Source of the DNA: a virus
IMG/VR virus record: IMGVR_UViG_3300036766_000678
Location: 32,001 to 96,000 of that record
Strand: one strand, 5' to 3'
Length of the DNA: 64,000 bases
Shown here: in pieces, positions 26,682-31,443 of the stretch
Layout of the letters: each line of letters starts with the position of its first letter
Numbering within the stretch: the first letter of the stretch is position 1
Notes under the pieces: generated by a model
Database searches by the model: none
What the model was told of the DNA's origin: nothing
What the model saw: the letters and a program-made list of their open reading frames with translations, nothing else
Position numbers and translations under genes: made by a program

Positions 26682-27346
26682 TATAATTCTACCACAATAG
26701 GTTTGTAAACTACTTTATAACTTTCATTCAACACAGAAGCATTAACAAATTTGACTCCATCTATAACTTCCTCGCCGTGTGAGGAATGTATATGGCCCAT
26801 ACAATGCAAACGAAGGTCTTTCAATTGGTCTACTCGTTTCCTAAGTTCTTCACATCCCAAATGTTCAGGACCTAAATGCTTATGATAAGGTTCTTCTGTA
26901 TTAACATCTAAGATTCCAAATGGGGGGCCGTGTGTCACTAAAATTTGTGTATTTTCTGGAATTTTTGCCCACCATTTTTTTATCTCTGCACCACGTTGTT
27001 CATTGAAAGCCCACGAATTAAAAAACGGGGTCCTAGGGGACCCGTACCACCTATAACCCATAAACTCTAATGGTTCATCTTGAAGATAAATACAATTGGT
27101 CATGATAGATCTAGCTAATGTAGGATTTTTTTCGAATAAAAAATCATGATTACCACAGACGGTCACAACCTCAGAACATACCCCATCTTTTTTTAATTTC
27201 CCAAACCATTGATTAATTTCCCAAAGAGATTGAAAATCACCCGTATAAGAATAATCCCCCGCATGAATAAGAACATCACACTTTGGAATTTCTATACTTC
27301 GATGCTGGTTATGGCTGTCCGAAATACAAGCTATTTTAATCATCAA
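26681..27346 (-). CDS. metallophosphoesterase (MPPED/239FB-like)
   Basis: ISDSH, HAGD, GNHD, THGPP, GCEEL, GHIH. Confidence 0.9.
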   Translation of the reverse strand: MMIKIACISDSHNQHRSIEIPKCDVLIHAGDYSYTGDFQSLWEINQWFGKLKKDGVCSEVVTVCGNHDFLFEKNPTLARSIMTNCIYLQDEPLEFMGYRWYGSPRTPFFNSWAFNEQRGAEIKKWWAKIPENTQILVTHGPPFGILDVNTEEPYHKHLGPEHLGCEELRKRVDQLKDLRLHCMGHIHSSHGEEVIDGVKFVNASVLNESYKVVYKPIVVEL

Positions 27347-28730
27347 AGTTCATCTCACTTATATCTTTAACCGGAACTAATTTATACTTTGATTCTTTAG
27401 CATATACACTCATCCGACTATTTGCATGAGATTCTAAGTACTTTACATTATTATCAAATACATCAACAATAATTGCTTTATCTTTTCCATCTGAAAGCCG
27501 CAAAGTACGACCAATGGCTTGGTACGCTGCCACAGTGGAAGCTTCAGCCCTAGCGGTAATAAGGACCTCTAATTTTACAATATCTACCCCTTCACCCAGA
27601 ATATTAGAACTTATGATCAATTTTCTTGTGCCTTCCTTGAATTCCTGCAATACTTTTTTTCTTTTCTCTGGTTCTGTACTACCATGAATGAATACTGCTT
27701 CAGGATATACCTTCTCTAAAATTTTTAGAAGGTTTTCTCCATGTTCGATGTAATTGATCAAAATTAAAGTACTCTTATTTGCTTGTACTGCTTTCATTGC
27801 AATATCAACAACTAATTGGTTTCGTTCTACATTATTTGTTACTTCTGTATCGTAAATTTCAGAATAAGGCATTCCTTTTCGTGGTTTACGTTCATGCTTA
27901 AAATCATAAAGAAATATTGTAGGCGGGACAAGCCAACCATCTTGTATAAGTTTGGAAGCATCAATATCCCATTTTTTCTTTCCAGCAAAGCCATCAAGAA
28001 GAATCGACATATTATCTTCTCTCCAATCCGTTCCAGTCCAGAGATACCTATAGTAAGCATTAGGACAAGCCTGAGCAATTTCCCAATATGTCTCGCATGG
28101 GGCGTGATGCCCTTCATCCCCCATCAACACTTCAACTTTAGGTAAAAAATCTTTCAGTTCATGAGAAGATTGAATCATAGAAATTGTTATGGGTTTTATA
28201 TCAACAACCCCTGCTCCAACAGTTCCAATCGGTACTTGGAGAATTCGCTCTAATGTTTCTTTAATCTGCTGCATAATCTCTTGCCTATGAATCAAAATTA
28301 AAGTGGTGAGATTCAACTTACCCACCAAAGCAGCAATACAAACCGTTTTGCCCCCACCTGTTGAAATCCTAATAACTGCTCTTTGCTGTTCAACAGAATC
28401 ATTAACCACTTGTTCTTGATACGGTCTAAGAGTAACATTGTACAAAGGAAGAGCTAGTTGTTCTTTCGGTTTTATTCTCAAATCCACATATTCATATTCT
28501 ATTTTAAATTTCTCCAATACTTCTCTAACCAACCACACCATCCCAGTTGCAAACGCCAGTCCCTTTTTAGTAAAAAAATGCTTTCGACCATCCCAATAAG
28601 GGGTTCTTTGTCTAGCATAATAAGAACCTACTACTTCTGCTGAGAGTTTATTGTACAAAGCAGAAATAATTTTAGGATCAAGATCTCCTACAAGCTTAGA
28701 TTTAACGTTCTGGATTTCTATTTGAATCAT
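27336..28730 (-). CDS. SF2 helicase (UvsW/XPB-like)
   Basis: LRPYQ, STGGGKT, DEGHH, WTGT, LGEGVD, QAIGRTLR. Confidence 0.9.
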   Translation of the reverse strand: MIQIEIQNVKSKLVGDLDPKIISALYNKLSAEVVGSYYARQRTPYWDGRKHFFTKKGLAFATGMVWLVREVLEKFKIEYEYVDLRIKPKEQLALPLYNVTLRPYQEQVVNDSVEQQRAVIRISTGGGKTVCIAALVGKLNLTTLILIHRQEIMQQIKETLERILQVPIGTVGAGVVDIKPITISMIQSSHELKDFLPKVEVLMGDEGHHAPCETYWEIAQACPNAYYRYLWTGTDWREDNMSILLDGFAGKKKWDIDASKLIQDGWLVPPTIFLYDFKHERKPRKGMPYSEIYDTEVTNNVERNQLVVDIAMKAVQANKSTLILINYIEHGENLLKILEKVYPEAVFIHGSTEPEKRKKVLQEFKEGTRKLIISSNILGEGVDIVKLEVLITARAEASTVAAYQAIGRTLRLSDGKDKAIIVDVFDNNVKYLESHANSRMSVYAKESKYKLVPVKDISEMNFDD

Positions 28731-28956
28731 ATTTCCACTCTAAATATTCTAAATTATTCATCTGTTGCCAATAACACTCATTATTACACATGTAACAAAC
28801 AGGATATCTTTCTATGTGCTCCTGCCAAACTTCATGGCCAACATCTTCTAAAAATACATACCCACCACGATCAAATCCTTCTTCACCATGATCTTGATAT
28901 TCATGGCCACACTTGCATGGGTAATTACTTTGTTCATTCATAGAAATTTGGTACAC
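28702..28956 (-). CDS. small Cys/His-rich protein (likely start 28941), paralog of 287..493
   Basis: CKCGHEYQDH...CYMC...C...NNLEYLEWKY. Confidence 0.65.
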   Translation of the reverse strand: MYQISMNEQSNYPCKCGHEYQDHGEEGFDRGGYVFLEDVGHEVWQEHIERYPVCYMCNNECYWQQMNNLEYLEWKYDSNRNPER

Positions 28957-29040
28957 CCGCCTGGACTTGCACCAGGATCACGCCCTTATCTGGGGCTTGC
29001 AGTGTATAAAGCTGCTGTTTTTCTATTAAACTACGGGTGT
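28949..29040 (-). tRNA. tRNA with UAU anticodon (Ile/AUA), atypical long variable arm, encoded CCA
   Basis: ACACCCG/CGGGTGT-A-CCA acceptor; GTTT/AAAC D stem; GCAGC-TTTATAC-ACTGC anticodon arm; 22-nt variable region containing GCCC/GGGC; CCTGG-TGCAAGT-CCAGG T arm. Confidence 0.85.
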
Positions 29041-29041
29041 A

Positions 29042-30019
29042 CTAAATTCCCCTTTTCACAATATCACTATAAACATCATACACAAAATCTTCAGCCCATT
29101 GATAATCTGGCTCAGTCCTAAGTGTAGAAATCTTTTGAGCTTCTTCTAAGTCTTGTAGGCCCTTTTCAATGATAACTTCTACTTCTTTGTAAGGCATCTT
29201 ACCAGTTTTGATATCTAGAAGCAACTTTCTTTCTGGGCAAGGAAAAGTAATAAAACCCGTCAAAAGAAGTTCCTTTGCCTCAAAGTTGACACGTACAGCG
29301 TGACTACACGCCTTGAGATCTACATTTTGATTATTGGAAGCCTCAATAGATCTCTTACCATATGCCTCATAAGTTTTAGTAAGGGAATCTTTAACATTTT
29401 TCACTGTATTAGTTAAAGGAAATTTTCGAGTAATCACTTCAAAATGAGTTACTAATTTATCTTGAGGCCCCAAGATATCTTTATACTTAATATGCTCAAG
29501 GTTTTGATTAACAAAAGAATCCAATTCGGATTTGAATTCAATCAGCCTAGAATAATTATCAAATTTAGAAATAAATTCTAAAGCTTCTTTAACTGCCCTA
29601 ACACGAGATCCTTTAATTCCATATTTAGAACATTGTCTGAGAGCGTAATGGTAGAAGGCTGCAACATTCTTAGACAATAGTTTATCTCTATTCTCATAGA
29701 TCTTCGTAAAGATATTATATCTATCCCCTTTAAATATATGGAATGATTCTGGTGAGAATAAAATATCAAGTGCAACCGTTTGTCCCCCAGTTAATAGTTT
29801 TAGATATTCCTTCAAACTAAAGAATTCCTGATCAATATCATCTTTATTATTGCGTTCGAATTCCTGCTTCGGACGAGATGTACTAATATTGTGTTTCCCT
29901 GTTCCCAAAACAATCTGTCGTGCAGTTGGAAGATAGATACCTTTTATATCTAAATCGCTGTCTGGCGTGTTCGTACCATATAGCCAAGAACCAAATTTAA
30001 TCTCGATGATTTTGTTCAT
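29042..30019 (-). CDS. RlaP-like Pol-beta-superfamily nucleotidyltransferase
   Basis: KFGSWLYGTNTPDSDLDIKGIY, ALDILF, DLKACSHAVR, LLDIKTGK..TEPD. Confidence 0.85.
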   Translation of the reverse strand: MNKIIEIKFGSWLYGTNTPDSDLDIKGIYLPTARQIVLGTGKHNISTSRPKQEFERNNKDDIDQEFFSLKEYLKLLTGGQTVALDILFSPESFHIFKGDRYNIFTKIYENRDKLLSKNVAAFYHYALRQCSKYGIKGSRVRAVKEALEFISKFDNYSRLIEFKSELDSFVNQNLEHIKYKDILGPQDKLVTHFEVITRKFPLTNTVKNVKDSLTKTYEAYGKRSIEASNNQNVDLKACSHAVRVNFEAKELLLTGFITFPCPERKLLLDIKTGKMPYKEVEVIIEKGLQDLEEAQKISTLRTEPDYQWAEDFVYDVYSDIVKRGI

Positions 30020-31098: not shown

Positions 31099-31127
31099 AT
31101 TATAACAGATTCTTACTTACTTGTCAA
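31099..31127 (-). promoter_or_regulatory. consensus sigma70 promoter
   Basis: TTGACA-17 nt-TATAAT with TG extension. Confidence 0.85.
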
Positions 31128-31414: not shown

Positions 31415-31443
31415 AGTATAACAGGAGAAGATAAGATTGTCAA
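31415..31443 (-). promoter_or_regulatory. sigma70 promoter, likely leaderless mRNA
   Basis: TTGACA-17 nt-TATACT; ATG 5 nt after the -10. Confidence 0.8.

Follow-up and report, generated by a model that had tools for sequence, protein, structure and literature searches.

A two-arm phage tRNA(UAU), probably for isoleucine, whose extra hairpin resembles the anticodon arm of tRNA-Ile(GAU)

The separation of AUA (isoleucine) from AUG (methionine) is a classic problem of bacterial decoding, and its known solutions are TilS-dependent lysidine, agmatidine and a rare UAU tRNA combined with an adapted IleRS. The stretch of 64,000 nucleotides of phage DNA analysed here (the window: bases 32001-96000 of a 180,416-bp virus record; 34.5% GC; rated 94% complete) carries a tRNA gene with the anticodon UAU and an additional arm, and thereby raises the question of which amino acid such a tRNA receives, which codon it reads and what the arm is for. 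Three tRNA genes were counted in the whole phage, Ile(UAU), Met(CAU) and Asn(GUU), and a look at the whole record revealed no gene for a class Ia synthetase, TilS or a CCA-adding enzyme. ATA accounts for 1,024 of the 54,825 phage codons (18.7 per thousand; 27% of the isoleucine codons), in agreement with an earlier note, made from the sequence of this DNA, that had called the genome ATA-rich. The phage genes include those for a tail-collar protein, an amidase, a helicase and a T4-type RlaP-like nucleotidyltransferase.

The earlier note had proposed a check with ARAGORN, and across the window this program made a single tRNA call, the minus-strand tRNA-Ile(tat) listed in Table 1. The gene scored 50.1 bits with Rfam RF00005 (gathering score 29) and 102 bits with R1, a covariance model of the family described below; at minimum free energy (-29.1 kcal/mol, z -2.4) the single sequence folded into a four-arm cloverleaf plus an additional hairpin. 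The length of 92 nt, the anticodon, the C31-A39 mismatch and A37, as reported before, were confirmed by ARAGORN together with the minus-strand sequence, and the same sequence bore out the 22-nt region between the anticodon and T stems with its GCCC/GGGC stem, the T-loop UGC, the D loop lacking GG, and the three Ile identity marks A73, C4:G69 and U12:A23; the strand had been missing from that description. The 7-nt anticodon loop (UUUAUAC) has U33 and a purine at 37, and the stem pair 29:41 of this arm, hereafter hairpin 1, is A29:U41. The combination of G18 G19 with U54 U55 C56 that marks an elongator tRNA is not found in its D and T loops (AAUAGAA, UGCAAGU). CCA is encoded in the window copy and absent from the genes of two relatives (L018 and L028). 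Genes are tightly packed on the minus strand around the tRNA, with 7 nt from its CCA end to the start of the next ORF.

Table 1. Parts of the two-arm tRNA gene and neighbouring features, with positions in the window
Feature	Position	Strand	Basis and remarks
Whole tRNA gene, 92 nt, anticodon UAU, CCA encoded	28949..29040	-	ARAGORN tRNA-Ile(tat); Rfam; family model
Acceptor stem, 5' strand ACACCCG	29034..29040	-	Sequence; C4 pairs with G69
D arm GUUU-AAUAGAA-AAAC	29017..29031	-	Sequence; U12:A23; AG where GG is usual
Hairpin 1, decoding anticodon arm GCAGC-UUUAUAC-ACUGC	28999..29015	-	UAU at 29006-29008; C31.A39 unpaired; U33, A37, C38
Hairpin 2, the supposed V arm, GCCC-CAGAUAA-GGGC	28982..28996	-	GAU at 28988-28990
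GUGAU, 5 unpaired nt between hairpin 2 and T stem	28977..28981	-	Central G; U48 opposite A15
T arm CCUGG-UGCAAGU-CCAGG	28960..28976	-	Sequence; U54 G55 C56, G55 replacing U55
Acceptor stem, 3' strand CGGGUGU, with discriminator A73 and encoded CCA	28949..28959	-	Sequence
RlaP-like nucleotidyltransferase gene, upstream of the tRNA	29042..30019	-	Pfam PF10127, phrog_388; stop codon 1 nt before the tRNA; genomic context
Putative sigma-70-type promoter, extended -10, 12/12 consensus matches	31099..31127	-	Pattern scan only; ~2 kb upstream of the tRNA
Second putative, near-perfect sigma-70-type promoter, extended -10	31415-31443	-	Pattern scan only; ~300 bp from the first

Relatives of the tRNA were gathered by synteny with the nucleotidyltransferase gene, by an extra-arm pattern, by an anticodon-free pattern of the arm plus the T arm, by BLAST with two members and by the covariance model. 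Homologues of the nucleotidyltransferase in a large protein collection led to syntenic contigs carrying related tRNAs, and BLAST with two members against named phages yielded Acinetobacter phage vB_AbaS_qsb1, Latilactobacillus phage TMW 1.1393 P1 and Lactobacillus phage LpeD; the search for the same extra-arm tRNA in phages, suggested by the earlier note, thus had a positive outcome that includes three cultured phages. No tRNA feature is annotated at the site of the two-arm tRNA in the LpeD or Latilactobacillus phage records. Outside phages, one member sits in a MAG labelled Pyrinomonadaceae, and a scan with the covariance model over 151 genomes from the phylum of one MAG member found the tRNA in 5 of them, each time within a dense tRNA array. 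Close DNA copies did not emerge from exact-pattern scans of viral contigs with the tRNA's own anticodon arm, T arm or whole core, the matches being unrelated sequences; neither blastn against phage records, with the tRNA or with its 4-kb surroundings as query, nor a locus search with a single protein gave anything useful. A pattern scan of metagenomes returned one contig already in the set and a false positive (L026) that is not a tRNA. Descent from a nearby tRNA-Ser(UGA) (L021) was considered and rejected, the two having no similarity.

The alignment used for covariation (A7) comprised 14 distinct members including the window copy, more relatives having been collected later. Standard pairing was found in 94.7% of its cells and 19 of 26 pairs changed on both sides; the covariation score was 0.70 relative to 0.22 in shuffles, none of 500 of which reached it, and in slid-partner controls the pairing fell to 33-45%. 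The tRNA fold is under selection, because so many pairs have been doubly changed and nearly all cells are still paired. Covariation extends to all four stems of the cloverleaf. Each of the 7 acceptor pairs is doubly changed somewhere in the family, 4:69 nevertheless being C:G in 13 of the 14 members. U33, UAU and A37 are invariant in the family, whose decoding loop reads YUUAUAN, and A73 is present in all 14 members of A7, U12:A23 in 9. The branch of acceptor and T stems is 7/5 in every member, and the equivalent of the GUGAU spacer is kept as G-N-G-A-Y or A-C-G-A-U.

What, then, is the additional arm? Class II tRNAs are marked by an anticodon for Leu, Ser or Tyr and a class II D arm, with 1-2 nt between the extra arm and the T stem. 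The window tRNA has UAU, a 4-bp D stem with a 7-nt loop, and 5 nt after the arm. The earlier description of the insert as a class II long variable arm did not survive this comparison: judged from the sequence, hairpin 2 is not a Leu/Ser/Tyr-type arm, because the D arm is of class I type and the hairpin is followed by a 5-nt loop of class I length. Furthermore, its stem covaries (CCC/GGG, UCC/GGG, CGA/UCG, CAC/GUG, CUC/GAG, CGC/GCG and GGCC/GGCC) while the loop keeps C-N-G-A-U-N-A, with the versions CAGAUAA (window, qsb1 and L140), CAGAUUA, CCGAUUA, CGGAUCA, a tighter AGAUC form, and CUGAUAA in a bacterial copy (L159). The anticodon loops of tRNA-Ile(GAU) at the same loci are mostly YUGAUAA, that of L158 being UCGAUAA, and hairpin 2 of the window copy places G, A, U, A and A at positions matching 34-38 and, in its stem, a C:G pair at the site that corresponds to C29:G41. 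On the strength of this loop and stem pattern, hairpin 2 is a second anticodon-like hairpin displaying GAU, a copy of the anticodon loop of tRNA-Ile(GAU). Its likeness to that tRNA, the major bacterial isoacceptor, extends to the C:G stem pair and the class-I-like variable loop of 5 nt; the differences are that the decoding loop is UAU and that most copies of hairpin 2 lack U33 and a purine at 37.

The GAU hairpin and the UAU anticodon occur together. A pattern of hairpin 2 plus T arm that is blind to the anticodon retrieved 22 tRNAs from viral contigs, and all 22 had UAU; conversely, hairpin 2 was present in 21 of 21 long UAU tRNAs, and no convincing GAU hairpin was seen among 340 other unique tRNAs. 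The tie is strict in this sample, part of which was obtained with patterns containing CCCAGAU; this bias does not touch the members that came from synteny, BLAST or the model, and they agree. Kissing of the two loops (UUAU with AUAA) was rejected as an explanation, since it works for CAGAUAA only and not for CAGAUUA or AGAUC. In the hairpin 2 loop, GAU with the next base also spells an isoleucine codon (AUA, AUU or AUC), and therefore other readings of this loop exist. In most members hairpin 2 has a base other than U at 33 and a pyrimidine at 37; the pyrimidine leaves no t6A37-type determinant there, and to judge by these two positions a decoding role of hairpin 2 in most members is unlikely. 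The hairpin may be a decoy, a regulator or an element of the fold.

How could a tRNA of this kind obtain isoleucine? Ordinary IleRS reads G34 or lysidine-34, A35, U36, A37, A38, C29:G41, C4:G69 and A73, and the bacterial Ile identity set also includes U12:A23 (PMC9976931). The E. coli enzyme charges UAU tRNA-Ile poorly unless W905 is changed to Arg, and an unmodified U34 could also read AUG (PMC3575796). With a probability of roughly 70%, in our judgement, the gene specifies a working elongator tRNA-Ile that is charged by the host, decodes AUA and carries a GAU-showing second arm. Of the readings offered in the earlier note, that of a TilS-independent, AUA-reading Ile tRNA is the one which the evidence favours, namely A73, C4:G69, the invariance of U33, UAU and A37, and the Ile-type ATA columns described below. 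We infer that the UAU tRNA is expressed and charged with isoleucine. It would probably be transcribed in an operon from the consensus promoters ~2 kb upstream and then be cut out; pattern scanning revealed no minus-strand terminator-like site between the nearer promoter and the tRNA, and this promoter is a candidate start of the tRNA-carrying transcript. Host IleRS would then charge the tRNA with isoleucine, and the UAU of hairpin 1 would read AUA on the ribosome without TilS, the AT-rich phage thereby being supplied with a TilS-free AUA reader.

For the second arm, the likeliest job, though at less than even odds, is that of a handle for IleRS. Hairpin 2 would give the enzyme the anticodon-type determinants that are absent from the UAU loop (G34, A35, U36, A38 and the C:G stem pair), and the labour would be split, with one hairpin for the synthetase and the other for the ribosome. 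Against this idea, the extra arm of a normal L-shaped tRNA lies off the anticodon-binding site of IleRS, so that a handle would require the arm to be flexible or to stack differently; the base other than U at 33 and the pyrimidine at 37 in most copies of hairpin 2 also speak against it. Doubtful, too, is the wider proposition that two anticodon-type arms divide the work, hairpin 2 being a surrogate anticodon for any ordinary host IleRS and hairpin 1 decoding, to make a portable AUA reader, independent of TilS and of any particular synthetase, that phages and mobile tRNA arrays would have spread across phyla.

Full-text searches of the literature found no description of a two-arm UAU/GAU tRNA design, and the nearest cases were the tRNA-Ile(UAU) of Mycoplasma mobile, the nev-tRNAs and the allo-tRNAs. 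The class I tRNA-Ile(UAU) of M. mobile (Taniguchi et al. 2013, PMC3575796) likewise uses UAU for AUA, has no need of lysidine, and has A73 and Ile-type features. It pairs with an IleRS adapted at one residue (Arg865), whereas the present tRNA must use whatever IleRS its host has; unlike the M. mobile tRNA, the present one has the added GAU-showing hairpin and is phage-borne or array-borne.

The best-surviving alternative to a working elongator is an RNA outside translation that would act as a sponge for a host anticodon nuclease or another tRNA-targeting defence, would titrate IleRS or would work with the neighbouring nucleotidyltransferase and RNA-repair genes, with the GAU hairpin as bait; that hairpin 2 mimics the anticodon arm of tRNA-Ile(GAU) and that the gene abuts an RlaP-family nucleotidyltransferase would suit this reading. 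TilS-independent tRNA-Ile(UAU) has reportedly been described for lactic acid bacteria, by Tomikawa in 2018 and by Uesugi in 2022, and the L. plantarum tRNA-Ile(UAU) of Tomikawa et al. in 2018 was reportedly expressed but uncharged, which, if that tRNA has the present architecture, would also speak for a role outside translation. Conversely, the features that translation needs (U33, A37, the 7/5 branch, A73 and C4:G69) are all conserved, the members lie within ordinary tRNA clusters and arrays, and we know of no Ile-specific anticodon nuclease, a point that counts against a decoy. In favour of a role outside translation, most allo-tRNA(UAU) species have been suggested by Mukai et al. to be unused in it (PMC5389517).

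The surroundings of the gene bear on the supposed partnership. Homologues of the nucleotidyltransferase occur in more than 1,500 phage records, the enzyme being common in T4-like phages, and the stretch from this gene to the helicase gene (27336-30019 in the window and the related loci L018-L047) is a tRNA insertion hot spot of variable content. The sets found there in relatives are Asp+Thr; Asp+Asn+Thr; Arg+Met+Ser+Trp+Gly; Thr+Ile(UAU); Met+Phe+Ile(UAU)+Thr; Ile(GAU); and none, and in some relatives the hot spot holds a tRNA(UAU) of 91-92 nt built like the window copy. A functional tie between the tRNA and the nucleotidyltransferase was rejected, as the synteny is not kept: in relatives the tRNA lies elsewhere, or the site is occupied by other tRNAs or by none. 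The decoy or repair-substrate role that had been put forward in the earlier note finds no support in the present results, and we consider a function outside translation unlikely.

Next in rank is decay, the window copy being taken for a pseudogene in the course of being lost. The departures on which this alternative draws are real (G18G19 missing, G55 for U55, a broken 31-39 pair), and the Rfam score of 50 bits is modest. All three departures are, however, common to the window copy and L018 despite many compensatory stem changes, which argues that they have been kept under selection. Across A7, the D and T loops combine GG with UUCGA in 10 of the 14 members and GG with UUCAA in two (L144 and L148), and only the window copy and L018 have G55. 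These two share AG for GG as well as G55 for U55 across many compensatory differences in the acceptor, D and T stems, and the change must therefore be old and kept. The 31:39 pair is non-standard in 7 of the 14 members. L148 also has C.A there; it has an acceptor stem and a 3' strand of the T stem nearly identical to those of the window copy, but the usual loops, AAUGGUA in the D arm and UUCAAGU in the T arm. Among the tRNAs of all loci that had not been obtained by the T-arm pattern, the D loop had AG instead of GG in 6 of 6 true G55 tRNAs and in 16 of 302 others (Fisher p 1.6e-6), and G19:C56 is kept in the A18/G55 tRNAs. We read A18-G55, from this co-occurrence, as a paired replacement of the G18-pseudouridine-55 contact.

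The window copy is thus a derived family member with an A18/G55 elbow. The combination recurs in independent tRNAs, the tRNA-Met of the same phage included, which also counts against decay, and a pseudogene seems very unlikely to us. Of the non-canonical D and T loops in the earlier note, their presence stands and degeneration does not: the change is a coherent, paired one, A18 with G55. In the working elongator tRNA-Ile that we prefer, the A18/G55 elbow and the open 31-39 pair would be lineage variants of the same design. A literature search returned no paper in which A18, G55 and the T-loop are mentioned together. The A18/G55 elbow represents a recurring natural alternative, in phage tRNAs, to the near-universal G18-pseudouridine-55 contact. 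The phage's own tRNA-Met (G000 C1 111536-111610, minus strand, outside the window) has G55 with AG and an initiator-like C1.A72 mismatch. G55 (UGCAA or UGCGA) with AG is also seen in L157, L159, L015 and L012, in tRNAs of Met, Phe, Ile, Arg, Gly and other specificities, and a second paired change joins U56 with GA (A19:U56).

The remaining alternative is a recoding or mistranslating tRNA, a substrate of LeuRS, as are the nev-tRNAs of nematodes, or of SerRS, as are the allo-tRNAs, so that AUA would partly mean Leu or Ser. The long extra arm, A73, and A15 with U48 fit such a tRNA; bacterial LeuRS ignores the anticodon (PMC9976931); V-arm UAU tRNAs are known from nematodes (PMC3333845) and among allo-tRNAs (PMC5389517); and in one array (L124) a tRNA-Leu(CAA) and the UAU tRNA have an identical acceptor stem and discriminator. 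The meaning of ATA in the phage was evaluated by comparing phage ORFs with related loci by tblastn and tallying the relative's residue per query codon, with ATA-encoded subject residues left out. At 184 positions with ATA in the query, the relatives had I in 40.7%, V in 16.6% and L in 10.6%; the corresponding values were 40.7%, 16.2% and 13.5% at 437 positions with ATT or ATC, and 8.0%, 6.5% and 55.3% at 825 positions with Leu codons. The log-likelihood of the ATA columns was highest with the Ile profile (-391, relative to -444 for Val, -514 for Leu, -586 for Met and -791 for Ser), and I/(I+L) amounted to 0.79 (0.72-0.86) at ATA, 0.75 at ATT/ATC and 0.13 at Leu codons. Because the ATA columns best fit the Ile profile, ATA means isoleucine here and a Leu- or Ser-charged AUA reader is unlikely; recoding of ATA in the phage appears unlikely from these columns, which show no Leu or Ser excess. 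The mis-acylated recoding tRNA considered in the earlier note is disfavoured by this test, and a Leu identity drawn from the shared acceptor stem in L124 was rejected as outweighed by it.

Structure points in the same direction. The class I D arm, with its 4-bp stem and 7-nt loop, is no Leu- or Ser-type D loop, the discriminator is A73 rather than the G73 of tRNA-Ser, the extra-arm loop has kept its sequence, as Leu or Ser arms do not, and the Leu tRNAs of the L124 and L069 arrays have no long arms. Class II tRNAs (Leu, Ser, Tyr) and nev-tRNAs, which include the anticodon UAU (Hamashima et al. 2012, PMC3333845), resemble the present tRNA in a length of ~90 nt and in having a further stem-loop between the anticodon arm and the T arm; the present family differs from both in its class I D arm, the 5 nt after the arm, the conserved loop sequence and the reading of ATA as Ile and not Leu, the I/(I+L) value at ATA contradicting a nev-tRNA-like Leu reading of an odd codon. 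The allo-tRNAs (Mukai et al. 2017, PMC5389517), for which Acidobacteria are named as a source, are similar in their long arm, in UAU, a predominant anticodon among them, and in their metagenome occurrence. They have an 8/4 or 9/3 branch of acceptor and T stems, a long D stem with a tetraloop and a Ser-type identity, as opposed to the 7/5 branch, ordinary D arm and A73 of the present family, which is not an allo-tRNA because of its 7/5 branch. The 8/4 allo-tRNA fold was rejected, since an eighth acceptor pair is possible in the window copy only and impossible in L018 and L028, where U8 is unable to pair. Recoding is the least probable of the alternatives, and we regard it as very unlikely.

If the handle is real, a mobile tRNA that carries an element of its own for recognition by IleRS would add a fourth to the solutions of the AUA problem. 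It would also, to our knowledge, be the first natural case in which identity and decoding signals stand on separate anticodon-like arms. Such an arrangement would explain the use of a UAU tRNA by phages of very different hosts, and would offer a template for engineered orthogonal tRNAs. Annotation pipelines label two-arm genes as plain tRNA-Ile or miss them.

Several observations concern other tRNA genes at the loci collected here. Bacterial tRNA-Leu normally has a long variable arm; the tRNAs with Leu anticodons (UAA, CAA, UAG and GAG) at L124:3619-3889, L069:146-220 and L050:12361-12437 are 75-78 nt long and have none. The arrays L155-L159, from the bacterial genomes G001, G065, G051, G138 and G102, hold 9-29 tRNA genes within about 3 kb, and the array L124/L155 adjoins genes for an HNH endonuclease, a Ser/Thr kinase and a TPR protein and looks chromosomal, not phage-borne. 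The two-arm tRNA of phage TMW 1.1393 P1 lies between a tRNA-like gene, called with the 4-base anticodon agtg, and a 68-nt call resembling Ile(GAU) (L153:1413-1490, 1590-1657); the record annotates no tRNA at this place, which a CDS overlaps. A 74-nt class I tRNA, called UAU by ARAGORN, directly follows the two-arm UAU tRNA at L134:6404-6477 (also in L135), and its loop is CCUAUAA, with C33. Lastly, a homologue of tRNA-Thr(UGU) at L033:9073-9174, whose acceptor stem is as in the Thr tRNA of L047, was not called by ARAGORN and carries a 26-nt insert within the anticodon loop that may be a small intron-like insertion or mark a disrupted gene.
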